From Bacillota bacterium (lineage in GTDB: Bacteria; Bacillota; Dethiobacteria; DTU022), in the NCBI GenBank assembly GCA_019428945.1, contig JAHYJM010000002.1, positions 2,107 to 66,106 of the forward strand: a stretch of DNA of 64,000 nt, given 5' to 3'. This document shows positions 10,887 through 20,156 of this stretch, one piece after another. Under the pieces are notes generated by a model. That model was not told where the DNA came from. It ran no database searches and was given only the letters and a program-made list of their open reading frames with translations. Numbering within the stretch: position 1 is the stretch's first letter; the number at the start of each line of letters is the position of its first letter. A program made the translations under genes and the position numbers.

Positions 10887-11675
10887 TTGAAAAGATTTCT
10901 ATATTACATAGTTTTTTTCATAGCGGCACTATACCTTCAGTCAGGTATGTACGGTTGCGCTAAGCCAGGTGATTTGATCACGATCAATGTTTCTGCCGCT
11001 GCCAGCCTAACCAATGCAATTACAGAAATAAATAAGCTATTCAAGGAAAACAACAACGATGTTGAAGTCCTGGCCCACTTTGCAGCCTCTGGCGACATTC
11101 AAACACAGATTGAAAACGGCGCGCCTATAGATGTTTTCATCTCTGCAGCAGCAAAACAGATGGATTCCCTTGATGCAAACGGTATGATCAAAACCGAAAC
11201 CCGCCGAAACTTATTGAGAAATAAAATTGTTTTGATTGTTCCCCGCAGCAGCAATTTGATTGTATCCGGTTTTGAAAGCCTGGTAAGTGACGAATTCAGA
11301 AGAATTTCCATCGGCGATCCGGATTTTGTACCAGCGGGCTACTACGCCCTCCAGACATTTGAGTTAACTGGAATTTCTTACGAAAAGATTCAATCAAAAT
11401 TATTATTGGCCGGCAATGTTATGCAGGTGCTTAGCTACGTAGAAAGTGGAGATGTTGACGCCGGAATTGTTTTCGCCTCGGATACAACTTCATCTGACGC
11501 AGTGAGAATTGTCGCAACTGCTCCAGACGAGATCAACAATAACATCATATATCCTATTGCTGTTATCGCTTCAAGTAAAAATATAGAGGTTTCAATCAGA
11601 TACATAGACTATTTGTATAGTGCAGCAGCCCGGGAGATTTTCGAAAAGCACGGATTCACTGTAATTACTGAGTAA
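10887..11675 (+). CDS. modA: Molybdate ABC transporter substrate-binding protein.
   Basis: 262 aa. There is a TTG start with an AAGGAG RBS and a signal peptide. ...VLAHFAASGDIQTQIENGAPIDVFISAA is a typical ModA sequence. Confidence 0.85.
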   Translation: MKRFLYYIVFFIAALYLQSGMYGCAKPGDLITINVSAAASLTNAITEINKLFKENNNDVEVLAHFAASGDIQTQIENGAPIDVFISAAAKQMDSLDANGMIKTETRRNLLRNKIVLIVPRSSNLIVSGFESLVSDEFRRISIGDPDFVPAGYYALQTFELTGISYEKIQSKLLLAGNVMQVLSYVESGDVDAGIVFASDTTSSDAVRIVATAPDEINNNIIYPIAVIASSKNIEVSIRYIDYLYSAAAREIFEKHGFTVITE

Positions 11676-11694
11676 TTCTTGGGAGATCAATGAT

Positions 11695-12390
11695 ATGCTT
11701 GAAACCTTTTTATCACCATTGTATGTATCACTAAAAACTGTCCTGACTGCTACAGTAATAACCTTTTTCCTCGGGTTGGCAGCAGCACGGTGGATGTCAG
11801 GCTACACAGGTAAACTTAAAAGTATTATTGACGGGATATTTCTGTTACCCCTGGTGCTGCCACCAACAGTGGTTGGGTTCGGGCTGCTTCTGCTCTTCGG
11901 CAAAAACGGCCCATTCGGCAAGATTTTAGAGTTACTGGGAACCACAATTATATTTTCATGGCCTGCAACAGTTATAGCTGCAGTAATTGTATCCTTTCCT
12001 CTCATGTATATGTCTGCCCGGGGGGGATTTGAACAGGTTGATATCAATATCGAAAATGCCGCCCGCACTCTTGGCGCCGGAGAATGGCGAATCTTTTGGA
12101 CCGTTACCCTGCCGCTTTCCTGGCCGTCAATAATGGCAGCAACCGTTTTAGCCTTTGCCAGAGCTTTGGGCGAATTCGGGGCCACTTTAATGCTCGCTGG
12201 AAATATACCGGGGAAAACCACAACAATACCGGTCGCTATCTATTTTAAAATCCAGGCCGGTCATATGGGTGAAGCGTTTCTTTTAACTTTAATTGTTCTT
12301 GCTTTTGCTTTTGTATCACTTGCTTTACTGGCTTACTGGAAGAATAAAGCAAATAACAAGGGAGAGGGTATCACTCTTGCTGGAAATTAA
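11695..12390 (+). CDS. modB: Molybdate ABC transporter permease.
   Basis: 231 aa with 5-6 TM helices and the ABC permease EAA loop ...ARALGEFGATLMLAGNIPGKTTT. Confidence 0.85.
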   Translation: MLETFLSPLYVSLKTVLTATVITFFLGLAAARWMSGYTGKLKSIIDGIFLLPLVLPPTVVGFGLLLLFGKNGPFGKILELLGTTIIFSWPATVIAAVIVSFPLMYMSARGGFEQVDINIENAARTLGAGEWRIFWTVTLPLSWPSIMAATVLAFARALGEFGATLMLAGNIPGKTTTIPVAIYFKIQAGHMGEAFLLTLIVLAFAFVSLALLAYWKNKANNKGEGITLAGN

Positions 12391-13459
12391 TATAAAAAAA
12401 ACTCTACCCGGTTTTCAGCTTGATATTGACCTCTCTGTCAATCGGGAGATTATATCGATGCTTGGTCCTTCAGGCTCAGGTAAAACGATGACTTTACTCA
12501 GTATCGCCGGTTTGTTAAAACCCGACCAGGGTATAATTTGCCTTAACGGATGCACTCTTTTCTCTTCGCAAGATAATATTTTTTTACCTCCCCAAAAGAG
12601 AAAGATTGGGTTTGTTTTTCAGAACTACGCCCTTTTTCCTCACATGACTGTCGCCGATAATATTGCCTACGGCATGCAGGGAAAACCGAAAGAACAAATT
12701 AAGAAACGTGTGGATGATCTTCTTGAAATAATCCATATCCCTGCGCTTAAAAACCGCTACCCTTTTGAGCTTTCATCAGGGCAGCAGCAAAGAGTGGCTT
12801 TGGCCAGGGCAATTGCTCCTGAACCTGAAGCGCTGCTCTTAGATGAACCTTTTTCCGCCCTTGATACCTTCCGCAAAGAACGTCTTGAATTCGAGCTGCT
12901 TACACTTCAACAATATTACCTGGGCGATATACTTTTTGTCACTCATGATCTCACCCAGGGGTTTAAACTTGGAACACGCCTGGCTATATATGACAACGGT
13001 CGCATCGTTCAGTGTGATAACCGCGAAGAGGTCATTTCTTCACCGGTTAATCGAACCGCGGCAAGACTAACGGGTGTTAAAAACCTCTTTGATGGCATTG
13101 TCACCGGTTCTGACAATCATAGTGCTATTATCTATATACCGGAATTCGGCACCTCGCTGAAAACAACAGATTACTCTGCTGCAAAGCTATATGTTGATCA
13201 GATGGTAGTATTGGGCATCAGGCCTGAACATATAGAAATTTTCGAAGAGCCTACTGAAAACACTATACCCTGTCGGGAAGGCCACCAGGTTGTCGGAGTA
13301 ACAAACATACACTACTATTACTATGCAGAAAGAGATAATAATAAAAGATATCATCTGGAAAGCTGCAGACCCAGGCCGCTGTTACCACCCTGTTTTGAGG
13401 CCGGAAAGCCATGTTATCTTTATTTCCCGCCGGAACGAATTATAACCCTGGTAAATTAA
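12377..13459 (+). CDS. modC: Molybdate ABC transporter ATP-binding protein with a C-terminal Mop/TOBE-like domain.
   Basis: Walker A is LGPSGSGKTM, the signature is LSSGQQQRVALARA, and Walker B is LLLDEPFSALD. The ORF track starts it at 12293, inside modB. An in-frame TTG at 12377 overlaps the modB stop and gives a typical coupled start. Confidence 0.8.
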   Translation: MLEINIKKTLPGFQLDIDLSVNREIISMLGPSGSGKTMTLLSIAGLLKPDQGIICLNGCTLFSSQDNIFLPPQKRKIGFVFQNYALFPHMTVADNIAYGMQGKPKEQIKKRVDDLLEIIHIPALKNRYPFELSSGQQQRVALARAIAPEPEALLLDEPFSALDTFRKERLEFELLTLQQYYLGDILFVTHDLTQGFKLGTRLAIYDNGRIVQCDNREEVISSPVNRTAARLTGVKNLFDGIVTGSDNHSAIIYIPEFGTSLKTTDYSAAKLYVDQMVVLGIRPEHIEIFEEPTENTIPCREGHQVVGVTNIHYYYYAERDNNKRYHLESCRPRPLLPPCFEAGKPCYLYFPPERIITLVN

Positions 13460-13594: not shown

Positions 13595-14008
13595 CTAGAT
13601 AGTTTTTTTATTAACAGATTTTAATAAAGTAACCTGTGTAGGGCCTTCAACCGAATCTTTGACAGCTTCTTTAAATTCAAGATAGTGGTTGGTGTGCCGG
13701 TGCGTTTCTAATGCCTCGATACTGGTGTACTTTTCAAGGATATACAATTCTCCGGACTCCTCAAGCGGGATGTATGGTTCATACAGGAGGCATTCCTTTT
13801 CATTTTTACTGACCGCTTCAGCCATTTTTAGGCTTGCCTGTGCCACTTTCCCTTCCATACCCGGCTTAATTTTTAGCACTGCAACCAGAGCAATCACAAG
13901 ATCATCTCCCCGAATTAATTTGTTCTTAATTTCTCTCCAGGCAACACAAATTCCTGCCGTTGACATTATAGGTATAGCGGAGTATAATGAAACAAAAGAT
14001 TTAAACAA
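13595..14008 (-). CDS. Antibiotic-biosynthesis-monooxygenase (ABM) domain protein. The true start is probably the internal Met near 13966.
   Basis: LVIALVAVLKIKPGMEGKVAQASLKMAEAVSKNEKECLLYEPYIPLEESGELYILEKYTSIEALETHRHTNHYLEF is an ABM/Dabb ferredoxin-like fold signature. Confidence 0.6.
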   Translation of the reverse strand: MFKSFVSLYSAIPIMSTAGICVAWREIKNKLIRGDDLVIALVAVLKIKPGMEGKVAQASLKMAEAVSKNEKECLLYEPYIPLEESGELYILEKYTSIEALETHRHTNHYLEFKEAVKDSVEGPTQVTLLKSVNKKTI

Positions 14009-14050
14009 TTATTTTAAATACATATTTGAATATTATAACTAATTTGTACG

Positions 14051-16171
14051 TTGGAGACCACTATTATGTTCGACTTGGGTCAATTTGTGGTCAGGTATCG
14101 CAAAACTATCCTGATCTTTTATTTAATTATATTAGTACCTGCAGTAATAAGTTACCTGGCAACCGGAGTTAATTATGACCTCGCCTCATACATGCCGGAG
14201 AATATGAATTCGCGCCGGGGAGAAAAAATTCTCGAAGAGGAATTTGATTTATCCGGCCTGGGGCTTCTGATGGCCAGGGATAAAAAAAACCATGAAATCG
14301 AAACATTGATTGTCAGTTTGATCAATGTTGGAGGTGTGGATGATGTTAAGTGGCTCGGAGATTACTCAGATCTATATGTACCAATCCAATTTACTGATCC
14401 TTTAATCCAGGCGCGGTTTGCAACCGAAGATACAGTATTGTTACAGATCCAATTTAGCGGCAATGCCCGCGCTCCTGAAACAACTGCCGCAGTAAGATCA
14501 ATACAGGAGTTGATCAGAAATGATGAAAACCTCTATTTTGGCGGAGAACCGCCCATTCTTACTGAAATGCAATCAGCTATAGATGAAGAAATTTTAGTTT
14601 ATACCGCAATAGCAGTAGTAATGATTCTCTTTGTTCTGACAATCTCAACATCACTTTACCTGGATCCGATTCTTTTCCTGCTGGCCGTCGGTATCGCGAT
14701 TATAATTAATATGGGCAGTAATATCTTCAGGGGAGAAATTTCTTTTCTCACAGCATCGATTGCAGCGGTTATGCAGTTAGGCATCTCTCTTGACTATGCA
14801 ATTTTCCTGATGCATCGACTTGAAGAGGAAAAACCAAAGTTTAAAAATATCGAAGAGGCCATGATGTCCACGGTCAATAAAACTTCAACCACTGTTGCGT
14901 CTAGCGCATTAACCACGATAGGCGGTTTTGCCGCTCTTATGGCTATGCAAAACGGGATTGGCAGTGATATGGGGTTTGTGCTGGGCAAGGGGATTGTGAT
15001 CAGCCTGATCGTAACATTGACACTGCTACCGGGAATGATAATATTTATCTACCCCTTCAGCAGACGATTTAAACATCCTATTCTGCTTCCCTCTTTCGGG
15101 AAGATATCGAAATACCTGGTAAAATACCGCTGGTTATTTCTGGTCGTATTTTTAATTATTGCAGTGCCGTCTTACCTGGGACAACAAAAAGTTGACTATT
15201 ACTATTCAAATGAAAACTACCTGCCTCGTAACTCTAAGGCGGTAGCTGATACAAATAGAATAATGAGTGAGTACGGGGCGGTCGATATCGCCTATGTGAT
15301 TATTCCAGACCATGGACGACGGGAAGAACGCAAATTAGTGGATCTGTTGAATAAAATTACCTTTGTTGATTCTGTAGTCGCAGTGTCCGAACAGGTTGAC
15401 CAGGCCCTGCCGGAAATAATTATTCCTGAAGAACTGATTAGCGAGTTCAGTGGGGGCAATTACCGCAACATAATAGTTTTCCTGTCTCCCGGAATCAGCG
15501 AAACCGAGTCATTTCAAACCATAGATCTTATCCGGCAAGTTACTAATACTTTGAACGAGGAATTTTACGTTACCGGACCTACAGCCATGACCCGGGATAT
15601 GGCTGCCCTGTCTCGGATAGACGCCGGACGGGTTGCCCTTGTTTCTTTAGCTGCAATCGGATTAATAGTCGGCATCAGTCTTAAATCATTATCACTACCG
15701 GTTGTACTGGTTATGGCAGTTCAACTTGCGATATGGATTAATATAAGTATTCTCTACTACCAGGACCAGGCTGTCTCTTCACTGACTCCAATTATAATTG
15801 GAGCGATTCAGCTCGGGGCAACAGTTGATTATGCGATTTTATATACATTAAGGTACAGGGAAAACTTGGAACTGCTCCCCGGCAGACTGAAGGCGGCAGT
15901 AAAAACAATTGAGGATACCGGTCGTTCAATTCTGACCAGTGCATTAATACTTTTTGCAGCCACTTTCAGCATATCAGTTATAGCAGGGATTAAAACTACC
16001 CGTGAAATGACCATGCTGATAGGACGAGGCGCGATGATCAGCATGATCGTAATGTTTACATTGTTGCCGGCGCTTCTTATCGTCTGCGACAAACTAATCG
16101 GCCAGTCAACAATTAAATGGCCCAACATAAAATCAAAGATGAGTAACTCTCCGGAGGGATTAGATCGATGA
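14051..16171 (+). CDS. MMPL/RND-superfamily membrane transporter. The start is probably the second Met at 14066.
   Basis: 706 aa with two 6-TM bundles, each followed by an extracytoplasmic domain. GISLDYAIFLMHRLEEE is MMPL-like. There is a GGAGACC RBS 7 nt upstream of the ATG at 14066. Confidence 0.8.
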   Translation: METTIMFDLGQFVVRYRKTILIFYLIILVPAVISYLATGVNYDLASYMPENMNSRRGEKILEEEFDLSGLGLLMARDKKNHEIETLIVSLINVGGVDDVKWLGDYSDLYVPIQFTDPLIQARFATEDTVLLQIQFSGNARAPETTAAVRSIQELIRNDENLYFGGEPPILTEMQSAIDEEILVYTAIAVVMILFVLTISTSLYLDPILFLLAVGIAIIINMGSNIFRGEISFLTASIAAVMQLGISLDYAIFLMHRLEEEKPKFKNIEEAMMSTVNKTSTTVASSALTTIGGFAALMAMQNGIGSDMGFVLGKGIVISLIVTLTLLPGMIIFIYPFSRRFKHPILLPSFGKISKYLVKYRWLFLVVFLIIAVPSYLGQQKVDYYYSNENYLPRNSKAVADTNRIMSEYGAVDIAYVIIPDHGRREERKLVDLLNKITFVDSVVAVSEQVDQALPEIIIPEELISEFSGGNYRNIIVFLSPGISETESFQTIDLIRQVTNTLNEEFYVTGPTAMTRDMAALSRIDAGRVALVSLAAIGLIVGISLKSLSLPVVLVMAVQLAIWINISILYYQDQAVSSLTPIIIGAIQLGATVDYAILYTLRYRENLELLPGRLKAAVKTIEDTGRSILTSALILFAATFSISVIAGIKTTREMTMLIGRGAMISMIVMFTLLPALLIVCDKLIGQSTIKWPNIKSKMSNSPEGLDR

Positions 16172-18108
16172 AAAATAAAATCTACTATTCAATAGCGATA
16201 ATAATAACTGTGATGTTTGCGCTGGGATCTGCAGCTTATTCAGTAGTTCCTGATCAGGGCGCTTCTCAGGAGGGTAGTTACAGACCCGCTTTTCTCGCAG
16301 AAAATGTTTTACCTGAAAATCCCAATGAAGATGAAAGCCCGGCAGTAAAAAATGAAACTGTATACGTTTTGCTTGATCATTATGGTGCAGTACTTGATCA
16401 GAGAATAGTTAACCGGATTTACGGACAGGAGATACCCGGGGCAGATTCAGTTTTCGATTACGGAGTTTATACATCCGTTGAAAATATGATTACCGGAGAT
16501 GAACCTGCTATAATTGATAACAGGATCATATGGGATAGTCAGCTGCTTAAAAATGAAGATATCTACTATGAGGGGACAATTAAACAGCAGCTGCCGGTAG
16601 ATATAACAATCACTTATTATCTAGACGGCATAGAGATCGAACCGGAAAACCTTGCCGGCAAATCAGGAAGACTCGAATTATTAATTAAATTTAAGAACAA
16701 CCTGAGCTATAATGAACCGCTAAGTTATTATGATTATGAAGGCAACCTGGTGACAAAACAAGATGATAACTACGTCCCACTTCTTGTGCAGGGAACCCTT
16801 GATGCAGATCTGAACCTATATTCCGAAATTGATCCCGGAAATGGCATGAGCCTGATAATGGGTCAGACAGCAAGCATAAATTTCATGGTTTTTCCTTACC
16901 CCGAAGATGAGATCATAATCAGCATGGATGGAATAGATATAGAACTTGAGAGAATAACTTTTATGATTATTCCTCAAATGCCGGCAGTGCCGGATGTGGA
17001 TATTGAAGATATGCTCATTCAAATGCTTGAAGGGATAAGGATGTTCAGTGAAGGGTTAGGGGAACTTTCAGCAGGAGCAGATCGTATCTTGCAGGGATTG
17101 ATTAGATTTAATGATGAAAGCAAACGCATGACTTCTGGTTTTGATGACCTCTACCCGGTTATAGAAGAATATAAGGCTCAGCGTGAAAATTTGCTGGGTA
17201 TGCTTGACTCAAGGGATATTGAAGAAATGCTGAACTCAATTGACAACCTGGAATTATTGCTTGCAGAAATTAAAAATATACCTGATGCCAGTGAACTGTC
17301 TTCTGAACTTAACCAGGCTGCAGCGGAAACAGAAGAACTGGGGATACAGCTGAATGAACTTAACCAAATATTTTCCGGGCTGGAAAAATCATCACGTCAG
17401 ATATATGTTGAAGCAGAAAAACTAATAAAAGAGAATGAGCCAGGCACTCCACTTCATGAATTAGGCCTCTTGTTAATAGTCCGTGAAGAAGAATTGCAGA
17501 GTGCATCCTATCAGAATTACCTGGCCGGGCAAAGTTTCTCTGCTCTGGAGAATAACCTCGATTCATTCCAGCAAAACTGGCTGAATAATTATATGCCGGG
17601 GTTAAACGCACTGGAAGAACTGAACGTCTTGTTAAAGGCTGGCGACATTCCCGACCGAATTAAGAGTTTCCGGCAAGAAATATCAAAGCTCAATGAATAT
17701 CTTGAAATGGCAGACCAATTTATTATTGAATCAGACTCAATGCTGGCCGAAATTGAAATGCTTCCGGAAGCCTTAGATCAAATGGAAGCAGGACAAAAAC
17801 GTTTAACTGACGGTATTAATGCCCTGCGTTCAGAAGGTTTAAAAGCGATGGAGGAAGGATTAATAGAAGGGATTAATGAATCCAGGGCAGGAAAGGCAAA
17901 AATTGAATTGATGAAAAAACTGGCGGATGATTACCGCTCATATGCTGATAATGAACATAACCGGTCAAGTGAAGTCCGCTTTATTATCCAAACTCCCAGG
18001 ATAGAAATTGTAAATATTGACAGTCCCGTTAGTGTGGATAATAATCAAGATTCCTCCGAAAGATGGACAGAAAATATTTTGGCAAAATTTGTTAATCTAT
18101 TCCAATAA
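16168..18108 (+). CDS. Membrane-anchored extracytoplasmic protein with a long coiled-coil, of unknown function. It is the partner of the MMPL transporter.
   Basis: 646 aa. The ATG overlaps the stop of the MMPL gene (ATGA). It has a single N-terminal TM (IYYSIAIIITVMFALGSAAY), a beta-rich middle region, then about 300 aa of helical repeats (LSAGADRILQGLIRFNDES..., LNELNQIFSGLEKSS...) reminiscent of YhgE/Pip/EsaA-type repeats. Confidence 0.5.
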   Translation: MKNKIYYSIAIIITVMFALGSAAYSVVPDQGASQEGSYRPAFLAENVLPENPNEDESPAVKNETVYVLLDHYGAVLDQRIVNRIYGQEIPGADSVFDYGVYTSVENMITGDEPAIIDNRIIWDSQLLKNEDIYYEGTIKQQLPVDITITYYLDGIEIEPENLAGKSGRLELLIKFKNNLSYNEPLSYYDYEGNLVTKQDDNYVPLLVQGTLDADLNLYSEIDPGNGMSLIMGQTASINFMVFPYPEDEIIISMDGIDIELERITFMIIPQMPAVPDVDIEDMLIQMLEGIRMFSEGLGELSAGADRILQGLIRFNDESKRMTSGFDDLYPVIEEYKAQRENLLGMLDSRDIEEMLNSIDNLELLLAEIKNIPDASELSSELNQAAAETEELGIQLNELNQIFSGLEKSSRQIYVEAEKLIKENEPGTPLHELGLLLIVREEELQSASYQNYLAGQSFSALENNLDSFQQNWLNNYMPGLNALEELNVLLKAGDIPDRIKSFRQEISKLNEYLEMADQFIIESDSMLAEIEMLPEALDQMEAGQKRLTDGINALRSEGLKAMEEGLIEGINESRAGKAKIELMKKLADDYRSYADNEHNRSSEVRFIIQTPRIEIVNIDSPVSVDNNQDSSERWTENILAKFVNLFQ

Positions 18109-18123
18109 GCGAGGCGATTTCTA

Positions 18124-18705
18124 ATGGCCACTGACAGAAATGAGACCAAAACCAAAATACTGGAAACTGCAGCGGGAATAATCGGAAAAGAACGTAATCT
18201 GAACCTGACTATCAGGGAAATTGCCACCAGGGCAGACGTTAACATAGCTTCAGTCAACTATCATTTTGGCTCGAAGGAAAAACTGCTTGAAGAAGTTGAA
18301 ATGCTGCTCATAGAAAAAATCCGTCATATCTATACCAATATTCACAATTATGACCAATCAACAAGAGAAAGATTGATCAACTGGGCAGACAGCCTGATTA
18401 AGCACCTGATTGATTACCCTGGTATTATTTATCTTATAGGAACACAGGTTTTGGAAAAAGAGAATACGGGCCTTAGCATCTATTTACATCTTCTCGAAAC
18501 AGATATCAAACCGCTAGTAAAAAAGCTAACCGGCGATACAGATGAAACTGCAGTCAGTTATAAAGTATTACAACTGATATCGGGCATTGTATATCCTGTA
18601 TTGATCTATTCCAGCAACAATGAAACAGCCGTTATAAACATCGGTGACACAGTTATCCGAGGAAAATATGTAACATCGCTAGTCAACAGCATCGAAAAAG
18701 GTTAG
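18124..18705 (+). CDS. TetR/AcrR family transcriptional regulator.
   Basis: 193 aa. The N-terminal HTH is KILETAAGIIGKERNLNLTIREIATRADVNIASVNYHFGSKEKLL. Confidence 0.85.
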   Translation: MATDRNETKTKILETAAGIIGKERNLNLTIREIATRADVNIASVNYHFGSKEKLLEEVEMLLIEKIRHIYTNIHNYDQSTRERLINWADSLIKHLIDYPGIIYLIGTQVLEKENTGLSIYLHLLETDIKPLVKKLTGDTDETAVSYKVLQLISGIVYPVLIYSSNNETAVINIGDTVIRGKYVTSLVNSIEKG

Positions 18706-18706
18706 C

Positions 18707-19483
18707 CTAGACACCCATAATGTGATAGCCACCATCGGCAAAAATAACATTACCGGTGACAGCAGTTGAGAGATCGCTCAGAAGAAAGAGAGCAGAGCCT
18801 GCTACTTCTTCAGCAGGAACCAGGCGGCGCAATGGATTTTTTTGTTCCATACCATCAAGCATCCTGTTAAAATCACTGACACCTTTAGCCGATACTGTAC
18901 GAATTGGCCCTGCAGATACGGCGTTAACGCGGATTCCCAGTGGGCCAAGATCATTGGCCAGGTAACGTACGGAAGCTTCCAATGAAGCCTTTGCCACTCC
19001 CATTACGTTATAGTTGGTTACCACACGCTGAGAGCCCATGAAAGTTAATGTTATGATGCTCCCTCCCTCACTAAACATCGGGTAAAGCCTTTTAGTAACT
19101 GCAACCAGGGAATACGCGCTGATTTCCTGGGCCAGTAGAAATCCTTCACGAGAAGTATGGACAAACATTCCTGTCAATTCTTCTTTCTTAGCGAAGGCAA
19201 GACTGTGAACTAAACCATCAAGCCTGGTCCAATTATTACCCAGAAACTTCGCCAATTCATCTATTTCAGCATCATTGCCCACATCACATTGAATAAGAGG
19301 CGCTCCGGGTTCAAGATCTTCTGCCATCTTCCCAACCTTATCTTTAAAACGTTCACTCTGATATGTAAAAGCCAGGTTGGCGCCGGCTTTTTTTAAAGAA
19401 ACTGCGATCGCCCAGGCAATGCTGCGCTTGTTTGCCACTCCCATCACCAGGACATTTTTACCTTCAAGTAATTGCTCTGCCAT
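18707..19483 (-). CDS. fabI: Enoyl-[acyl-carrier-protein] reductase (NADH).
   Basis: 258 aa. LEGKNVLVMGVANKRSIAWAIA... is a classic FabI sequence, and the Tyr/Lys catalytic region is present. Confidence 0.85.
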   Translation of the reverse strand: MAEQLLEGKNVLVMGVANKRSIAWAIAVSLKKAGANLAFTYQSERFKDKVGKMAEDLEPGAPLIQCDVGNDAEIDELAKFLGNNWTRLDGLVHSLAFAKKEELTGMFVHTSREGFLLAQEISAYSLVAVTKRLYPMFSEGGSIITLTFMGSQRVVTNYNVMGVAKASLEASVRYLANDLGPLGIRVNAVSAGPIRTVSAKGVSDFNRMLDGMEQKNPLRRLVPAEEVAGSALFLLSDLSTAVTGNVIFADGGYHIMGV

Positions 19484-19583
19484 GATCTATTCAATTCCTT
19501 TCATTTAATTCTGTAATACAATTTGACGAACCAGAGAAATATTTCCCTGACCATTAACTTTAGAATGATATATTTTTATGATA

Positions 19584-20156
19584 TCAGGTCTGTATGTGCT
19601 CGTCGCTAATCAGGTGAAATATTGACTTGGTATCCGGATTAACATTGCCGAAAAAGATAAAGATTAAAATCTCTTCAATGAAACCTGCAATATAAATCAG
19701 GGCTACAATACGGACAAAAATTGTAACATCAAAAAAGAAAGATGAAACCAAGACAAAGTATACCATGACTGCATTCCATCGTAAAATAAAAGTATGCATC
19801 ATAACCGGACGTTTGAAGAGGATTCCTGAAAGTATAAAAGAAAAACCAAGTATAGAAAAAAATATAATCAGATAGACACTGTTAGCCGCTATAGCCTCCG
19901 GTTGTAATCGACTCAGGAAGTACGCTGAAGAGATGTAGAAAAAGAGATCCGCCAGTGAGTCAAGTTCCTTGCCGAAATGCGAAACCTGGTTGTACCTGCG
20001 GGCTATTAAACCATCAAAGAAATCGGTAGAGCCAATAATGATGTATGATATTAAAAAGAGCTGATCATATCCATAATGCAACATCAGGAATAATACTGGA
20101 AGCAAAATAATTCTGGACGCTGATAATATGTTTGGCACAGTAAGCCGAATTGCCAA
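19584..20156 (-). CDS. CDP-alcohol phosphatidyltransferase (PgsA-like).
   Basis: 190 aa. STDFFDGLIARRYNQVSHFGKELDSLADLFF matches the CDP-OH phosphatidyltransferase motif D-G-x2-A-R-x8-G-x3-D-x3-D. The protein is multi-TM. Confidence 0.7.
   Translation of the reverse strand: MAIRLTVPNILSASRIILLPVLFLMLHYGYDQLFLISYIIIGSTDFFDGLIARRYNQVSHFGKELDSLADLFFYISSAYFLSRLQPEAIAANSVYLIIFFSILGFSFILSGILFKRPVMMHTFILRWNAVMVYFVLVSSFFFDVTIFVRIVALIYIAGFIEEILIFIFFGNVNPDTKSIFHLISDEHIQT

Follow-up and report, generated by a model that had tools for sequence, protein, structure and literature searches.

The closest described relatives of the system reported here come from mycobacteria, where the MMPL/RND pumps MmpL5 and MmpL4 are each paired with a single-pass beta-sandwich partner (MmpS5 and MmpS4) and an adjacent gene encodes a repressor (Rv0678). 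A long antiparallel helical element projects from MmpL5 and is needed for efflux; this coiled coil, a 196-amino-acid (aa) insertion in the second periplasmic domain, is essential and was modelled in a 2025 cryo-electron microscopy study as a 13-nm helical tube, and MmpS5 serves as an assembly and stabilising subunit of the pump (PMC12501195). The nearest functional precedent in Firmicutes is the fatty-acid pump FarE with its regulator FarR in Staphylococcus aureus, a system that is inducible by a toxic amphiphile, namely antimicrobial fatty acids (PMC10019231, PMC12671165). Here we describe a locus in a 64,000-nucleotide (nt) stretch of contig JAHYJM010000002.1 from a Bacillota bacterium of the class Dethiobacteria (this whole stretch is called the window below). 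The locus encodes an MMPL pump, a 646-aa partner protein and a TetR-family repressor. The data argue for an exporter made of two obligate proteins, with a TetR switch that is inherited along with them, and we hold it to be reasonably probable that this exporter is substrate-inducible and takes its wall-spanning stalk from the separate partner protein, which would form a conduit in trans like that of the MmpL5 insertion. The features of the locus are as follows:

13595 to 13897, minus strand: ABM-family gene, divergent, starting at GTG 13897 and encoding ~100 aa (Pfam ABM, 8e-13).
13960 to 13988, plus strand: sigma-70 type promoter of the MMPL operon, TTGACA-17 nt-TATAAT (12/12 matches).
13999 to 14019, no strand assigned: probable TetR operator, a palindrome (ATTTAAA-caattat-TTTAAAT).
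14066 to 16171, plus strand: MMPL (RND superfamily) transporter, 701 aa (Pfam MMPL, 4e-57).
16168 to 18108, plus strand: partner protein, 646 aa, with its layout from AlphaFold2 and without a Pfam, NCBIfam or PDB sequence match.
18124 to 18705, plus strand: TetR-family repressor, 193 aa, the last gene of the operon (Pfam TetR_N, 1e-9).

The original prediction, made from the DNA letters alone, had recognised these four genes, and all four reading frames and their family assignments were found where it had placed them. The operon differs from its mycobacterial counterparts in several respects. The partner gene follows the pump gene, whereas mmpS precedes mmpL; MmpS proteins are ~140 aa long with an Ig-like domain, whereas the beta domain of the partner is two-lobed and tentatively mu-homology-like, and the MmpS Pfam model did not match the partner. 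The mycobacterial repressor is of the MarR type and the one found here of the TetR type. Moreover, the coiled coil of MmpL5 is inserted in the pump itself, while here the helices reside in a separate protein. With FarE-FarR the operon shares a Firmicute MMPL-type RND pump and a neighbouring gene for a TetR-family regulator. To our knowledge no stalk partner has been described for FarE, whereas here the partner is invariably present. We also compared the partner with the periplasmic adaptors of tripartite pumps (AcrA, EmrA, MacA). Neither HlyD, lipoyl nor beta-barrel domains were detected in Pfam and NCBIfam scans of the partner, and a single NCBIfam HlyD-type trace in the family (0.022) fell within the helices. 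The gene order and the beta-domain fold differ from those of tripartite-pump adaptors as well, and an outer-membrane channel partner is not present here.

The strongest feature of the system is the linkage of the two genes. Partner-anchored loci were collected by a scan of 185,579 species genomes seeded with alignment A1, which yielded 80 loci, and loci from metagenomes were added. An MMPL gene encoding ~690-705 aa adjoined the partner gene in every partner-anchored locus with upstream DNA (about 80; the count takes in loci L001-L086 except three that end at a contig edge), and an MMPL gene also abutted the partner gene in five divergent metagenome loci. The MMPL gene lay upstream on the same strand in all loci but one, L079, the sole locus with the reversed order of partner and then MMPL (L079:3615-7930). 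Among the 80 junctions of L001-L086 at which both genes were called, the genes overlap at 43 and are separated by 0-25 nt at 17; an overlap of exactly 11 nt recurs 13 times. In the window the stop codon of the MMPL gene overlaps the partner start in an ATGA (16168-16171) with a GGAGGG ribosome-binding site 10 nt upstream, as expected from the translational coupling that had been proposed for this pair. The reciprocal test gave the same answer: all four of the MMPL-anchored loci examined (31-37% identity) carried a partner-family gene directly downstream (E 1e-59 to 1e-105). In addition, pump and partner occur as single fused open reading frames in P0175 (1373 aa) and in L072:2745-6464 (1239 aa). 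The L072 fusion may stem from a frameshift in the assembly; P0175 offers a second, independent case. RND pumps generally have both termini in the cytoplasm and in the fusions the hydrophobic segment of the partner becomes a thirteenth transmembrane (TM) segment, which places the partner outside the cell. Finally, the two proteins diverge together, as the pairwise identities of the pump and of the N-terminal 330 aa of the partner correlate with r = 0.92 across 65 loci, a value reached in 0 of 999 permutations of a Mantel test. Thus the linkage that profiling across genomes was expected to reveal held in every locus where it could be tested, and the partner did not turn out to be a common annotated family, or the N-terminal half of YhgE, that lacks a connection to MMPL genes. 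Linkage, fusions and co-divergence together also support the dedicated export module that had been proposed, consisting of an MMPL protein, an adaptor-like partner and a local TetR sensor, in which the partner would take the part of the adaptor.

Fusions also bear on the idea that the partner is a cargo or client, with the MMPL protein acting in a SecDF-like manner on a long secreted protein. The partner does carry an export signal, and SecD and SecF models, which belong to the same superfamily, match the pump weakly. However, these matches are far below the cut-offs and the MMPL and HAE models score much higher; a transporter would hardly be fused to its own cargo, and TetR control is typical of small-molecule efflux. 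We therefore rank the cargo explanation as the least probable of those considered here.

The pump itself has the features of a small RND transporter. The Pfam MMPL model matched its two repeats in two stretches, and hydropathy predicted twelve TM segments with two extracytoplasmic loops of ~140-150 aa each. Asp-Tyr pairs are present in TM4 (D242-Y243, within LGISLDYAIFL) and TM10 (D587-Y588, within LGATVDYAILY). In MmpL3 the Asp-Tyr pairs of TM4 and TM10 constitute the proton relay. The closest relatives by sequence in the PDB were the siderophore exporters MmpL5 and MmpL4 (1e-16), with residues 123-432 of the pump aligned to 146-469 of MmpL5 and residues 481-671 to 725-925 of MmpL4. Between the aligned halves the pump has ~50 residues as opposed to ~256 in MmpL4/5, indicating that the coiled-coil insertion of the latter (actII type, ~200 aa in periplasmic domain 2) is absent from the pump. 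We take the protein to be a small RND-type pump, similar in size to MmpL3, that would be driven by protons and would take a hydrophobic or amphiphilic substrate from the membrane.

If the pump lacks the helical insertion, is a comparable element found in the partner? Sequence searches with the 646-aa protein returned nothing in NCBIfam, in the PDB or in Pfam, the last in a copy without PF28175, a family precomputed for two distant members of the partner family; the Pfam hits obtained over 35 partner relatives were all coiled-coil noise. We built the AlphaFold model that the original prediction had suggested (AlphaFold2, 35 homologues, pLDDT 81), and it confirmed the expected layout of an N-terminal hydrophobic helix (residues 2-26), a beta region (an all-beta stretch at 56-268, after a low-confidence linker) and helices (279-588). 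There are six of these helices, the last of 95 residues, and they are followed by two features absent from the original prediction, a strand (601-608) and a C-terminal amphipathic helix (630-645). The helical-repeat motifs that had been quoted before (LNELNQIFSGL among them) lie at residues 300-311, 406-416 and 535-555. The first helical stretch leads outward for roughly 92 residues, the second back for 49, the third outward for 64 and the last back for 95, and judged from this secondary structure the stalk would be roughly 15 nm long and would both start and end at the beta domain. Phe605, in the return strand, is invariant throughout the partner family, which fits a return strand that belongs to the beta domain. 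In fold searches against PDB libraries the beta domain, which is two-lobed, gave a tentative match, at the level of the fold only, to mu-homology domains (two joined beta-sandwich subdomains).

The helices resembled chemoreceptor four-helix bundles in fold searches. This likeness is what speaks for a partner that acts as a gate or regulator, sensing the state of the envelope and switching the pump on or off. The matches are, however, of a generic coiled-coil kind, and the partner lies outside the cell and has no cytoplasmic signalling domain; we regard such a role as improbable. Matches of the helices to SMC, chemoreceptor, designed coiled-coil, COG and laminin families in PDB and Pfam sequence searches were treated as compositional.

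The termini of the partner were compared among 199 complete sequences. A hydrophobic N-terminus was present in 177 of them, and many of these resemble cleavable signal peptides, the signal-like segments ending just ahead of a conserved KNETVY strand. A lipobox was found in 15 (including L088:7178-9628; for example, a segment ending in SLAAC), and a TM-like C-terminus in only two. Taken together, these N- and C-terminal features place the bulk of the partner outside the cell. The description of the partner as membrane-anchored thus stands with respect to its hydrophobic N-terminus but is not certain as to the anchoring, because many relatives have N-termini resembling cleavable signals or carrying a lipobox. 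In the window protein the segment may be a retained anchor or may be cleaved after GSAA. Some partners have clear signal-peptidase I sites just upstream of KNETVY, and the mode of attachment therefore varies within the family.

The family is large. An exhaustive profile search recovered partners of 341-1373 aa, with 12,370 cluster representatives passing E <= 1e-3 and 3,366 passing E <= 1e-30, while word-indexed searches recovered just 65 and 69 relatives and so badly underestimated it. The hosts of the module include Clostridia (C. cadaveris, C. argentinense, Caldicoprobacter, Syntrophomonas, Bittarella, Solibaculum, Oscillospiraceae and Lachnospiraceae), Dethiobacteria, Caldisericia and metagenome-assembled genomes (MAGs) of Actinomycetota. 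The window partner is 97% identical to a Dethiobacteria protein, its best matches being from MAGs, and for the pump a 'Bacillota bacterium' MAG encodes a protein with 100% identity. Members of the partner family are named 'hypothetical protein' in RefSeq; automatic UniRef names are occasional ('X-X-X-Leu-X-X-Gly heptad repeat-containing' and, for one member, 'YhgE/Pip domain-containing'), and our literature searches found no paper describing the MMPL-partner gene pair.

The UniRef names raise the question of whether the partner belongs with the YhgE/Pip or EsaA surface proteins (as a phage receptor, an adhesin or a part of a secretion system), has nothing to do with transport and merely shares the operon. 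Its helical repeats had been likened to those of both protein types, and at the level of the family this likeness holds for the xxxLxxG heptad-repeat helical stalk: the corresponding model (TIGR03057) matched 42 of 53 partner members, the best at 8e-67. It does not extend to the domains that define those proteins. YhgE/Pip proteins have an N-terminal domain of their own and a C-terminal ABC-2-type multi-TM domain, and the partner has neither. The YhgE/Pip N-terminal model (TIGR03061) did not match the window partner or four other members at E values up to 1; the C-terminal multi-TM domain (TIGR03062/ABC-2 membrane) had no match in the partner family; the EsaA N-terminal model (TIGR03929) did not match any of five partner proteins scanned individually; and neither TIGR03061 nor TIGR03929 appeared in the list of 25 families obtained with the 53 members. 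As controls, genuine YhgE/Pip proteins matched TIGR03061 at 4e-45 and 5e-50, and the C-terminal and EsaA N-terminal models strongly too. In a profile-profile alignment of the partner with YhgE/Pip only the repeats were covered. Membership of the partner in YhgE/Pip was therefore rejected, as the repeat is all that the two have in common. The missing domains, the lack of C-terminal TM segments, and the full linkage and fusions, which are unlike those of an unrelated passenger gene, largely refute the surface-protein explanation, and we consider it very improbable.

A more informative comparison came from the long actII-type MMPLs of clostridia and actinobacteria, which have the same pump core, a TetR neighbour and a stalk-like insertion. 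They differ in being single-gene pumps with the helical element built in and without the beta domain or a partner gene. One of them, the 1026-aa MMPL P0259 from Anaerocolumna, is encoded beside a divergent TetR gene at a locus that lacks a partner gene, and its second periplasmic domain contains a helical, xxxLxxG-containing insertion (residues 516-824). Residues 279-617 of the partner align to this insertion (hhalign, 96%, E 2.6e-9), which is suggestive of homology between the two stalks. In addition, 11 of the 53 partner members matched positions ~470-665 of the actII MMPL model, that is, its coiled-coil region.

We next considered how the stalk might be used. According to our preferred reading, the partner would be the obligate extracytoplasmic subunit of the pump, exported by means of its N-terminal hydrophobic segment, whether this is kept or cleaved. 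The two-lobed beta domain, closed by the C-terminal strand, would lie on the membrane and abut the extracytoplasmic domains of the pump, and the stalk would project from there, out and back, into the cell wall, as the in-trans counterpart of the coiled-coil insertion that MmpL4/5 carry in cis and that forms the substrate tube in MmpL5. An in-trans helical element projecting into the wall seems to us the most economical mechanism. The alternative is that the partner is an accessory subunit and not a conduit: in the manner of MmpS, TtfA or LprG-type partners, it would help to build or stabilise the pump, or pass the substrate on to an acceptor located in the wall or medium, with the stalk as a mere spacer or wall tether. 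Linkage, fusions and co-divergence fit this alternative equally well, and MmpS5 provides a precedent for an assembly and stabilising subunit (PMC12501195). The lengths of the partners are also relevant, as they correlate with the number of LxxGxxxLxxG units (r = 0.71), so that stalk length varies across the family; such wide variation (341-1373 aa) fits a spacer. Against it stand the apparent homology of the stalk to the in-cis insertion of a long MMPL and the finding that the MmpL5 insertion is essential and was modelled as a tube, and we judge the accessory role to be rather unlikely.

Several observations weigh against the two-component exporter with a stalk in trans. The window partner itself scores below the TIGR03057 model and has only degenerate xxxLxxG copies (residues 286-311 and 532-550). 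Coiled-coil similarity is prone to compositional artefacts, and the same region of the partner matches SMC, MCE and chemoreceptor models. That the stalk is encoded either in cis or in trans, one excluding the other, is a pattern resting on one locus examined. Moreover, if the N-terminal signal peptide is cleaved, retention of the partner at the pump is left to protein contacts alone, and an adjacent TetR gene was not seen in about a quarter of the loci. A wider reading, which we offer only tentatively and hold to be less probable than not, is that a bipartite RND pump of this kind is widespread in monoderms, with a small MMPL capped by an oligomer of the partner, the xxxLxxG stalk serving as a wall-spanning conduit and the mu-homology-like domain as a new docking module.

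We then examined the control region of the operon. Both hexamers of the promoter are invariant in five related loci (alignment A3). The palindrome begins 11 nt after the -10 box and covers the expected transcription start; in locus L009 it has a perfect 20-bp form, ATTTAAACAATTGTTTAAAT. An operator lying over the transcription start is the usual arrangement for TetR repressors. Of 66 distinct loci, 20 carry a motif of the form TTTAAAC-N4/5-GTTTAAA (<=2 mismatches) upstream of the start of the MMPL gene, Actinomycetota MAGs among them. In 19 of these 20 it lies 44-125 nt upstream of the start, while one weak match lies at 10 nt, and this fixed position argues for a real site. The background was 0.027 sites per 270 nt, a figure obtained mostly from coding DNA, which inflates the contrast. 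An inverted-repeat search of the intergenic region reported none; the arms of the palindrome are only 7 nt long, and it was seen through the alignment of its relatives. The palindrome is thus a probable operator, to which we infer that TetR binds. TetR would repress the operon from here until released by the substrate or a related compound.

A TetR gene adjoined the pair in about 60 of 86 loci when searched with an iterated TetR profile, and the protein encoded in the window found TetR relatives in a PDB sequence search. In the clade of the window the gene lies downstream, as had been noted for this operon, where tetR is the last gene, starting 15 nt past the stop codon of the partner with a GAGG of its own; elsewhere it is mostly upstream. 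TetR and operator travel with the pump-partner pair across phyla. Two further elements were noticed around these genes. A promoter-like sequence (TTGACA-17-AATAAT, 11/12) at 18017-18045 on the plus strand, inside the 3' end of the partner gene and 79 nt before the tetR start, could give tetR transcription independent of the repressed operon promoter. A block at 13950-13959, AATTCCTGCC, lies directly 5' of the -35 hexamer, and alignment A3 shows it conserved between the window and loci L007, L001 and L009; it might serve as a further regulatory site or help to control the divergent ABM gene.

What could such an exporter transport? The biosynthetic neighbourhood of the pair is not conserved and the flanking genes vary by locus, which speaks for an inducible pump that removes an amphiphile of environmental or metabolic origin, rather than for export of a dedicated product. 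Our best guess is that the substrates are toxic amphiphiles such as free fatty acids. Genes of lipid metabolism were seen near the module, as an anecdotal observation, in the window (18707-20156; a fabI-like gene and a CDP-alcohol phosphatidyltransferase) and at a few other loci (PgpA, L089:4370-4888; DegV, L090:625-1461; ACP synthase, L005:1075-1704).

The ABM (antibiotic biosynthesis monooxygenase) gene was predicted to lie divergent from the operon, and both its position and its family were confirmed. It is not part of the conserved module: it accompanies the pair only in the five closest loci (L001, L007-L009 and L011), and we rejected it as a module component because the linkage is limited to this clade. 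The start codons on both sides of the control region were revised. The longest reading frames as called extend from 13595 to 14008 (minus strand) for ABM and from 14051 to 16171 (plus strand) for MMPL. The ABM domain match spans 76 residues and begins at residue 39 of the longest frame, the L001 homologue has 96 aa (alignment with L001/L007), and GTG 13897 has a good ribosome-binding site (GGGGAG); GTG 13897 is therefore the likely start, giving a protein of 100 aa. For the pump, ATG 14066, with GGAG ahead of it at 14053, is most likely the true start. With both starts moved, the divergent intergenic region measures 168 bp at 30% GC and not the ~100 bp estimated before. Rfam and tRNA scans of the window found no RNA genes. 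At its 3' end tetR converges with the fabI-like enoyl-ACP reductase gene (18707-19483, minus strand); the two stop codons are 1 base apart (18703-18709, the tetR stop ending at 18705) and there is no terminator-like hairpin between them. On the other side, the longest frame of an ABC ATPase (12293-13459, 388 aa) belongs to an upstream molybdate-type transporter (modA/modB-like genes, 10887-12390) and overlaps the permease gene by ~100 nt, so that its real start is probably further downstream.

How Gram-positive RND/MMPL pumps move hydrophobic substrates past the membrane and the thick wall is largely unknown, and the MmpL5 tube itself has been known only since 2025. Accessory subunits of RND/MMPL pumps are a known arrangement; what is new is a widespread accessory family without a curated model or name. 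The family is very common and occurs, among others, in Clostridia of the human gut such as Dorea, Bittarella, Oscillospiraceae and Lachnospiraceae; as neither Pfam nor NCBIfam has a model for it, annotation would improve in thousands of genomes. Through the conserved TetR operator there is a route to the inducer and thence to the substrate. Having pump and stalk in separate genes means that deletion, swapping or a change of length of the stalk can reveal its role. A bipartite pump, if the wider reading is true, would fill in Gram-positive bacteria the place that adaptor and channel have in tripartite pumps, as an in-trans version of the MmpL5 tube. If our preferred reading is true, the coiled-coil device of MmpL5 would have a second version in the partner family, one that is genetically separable.

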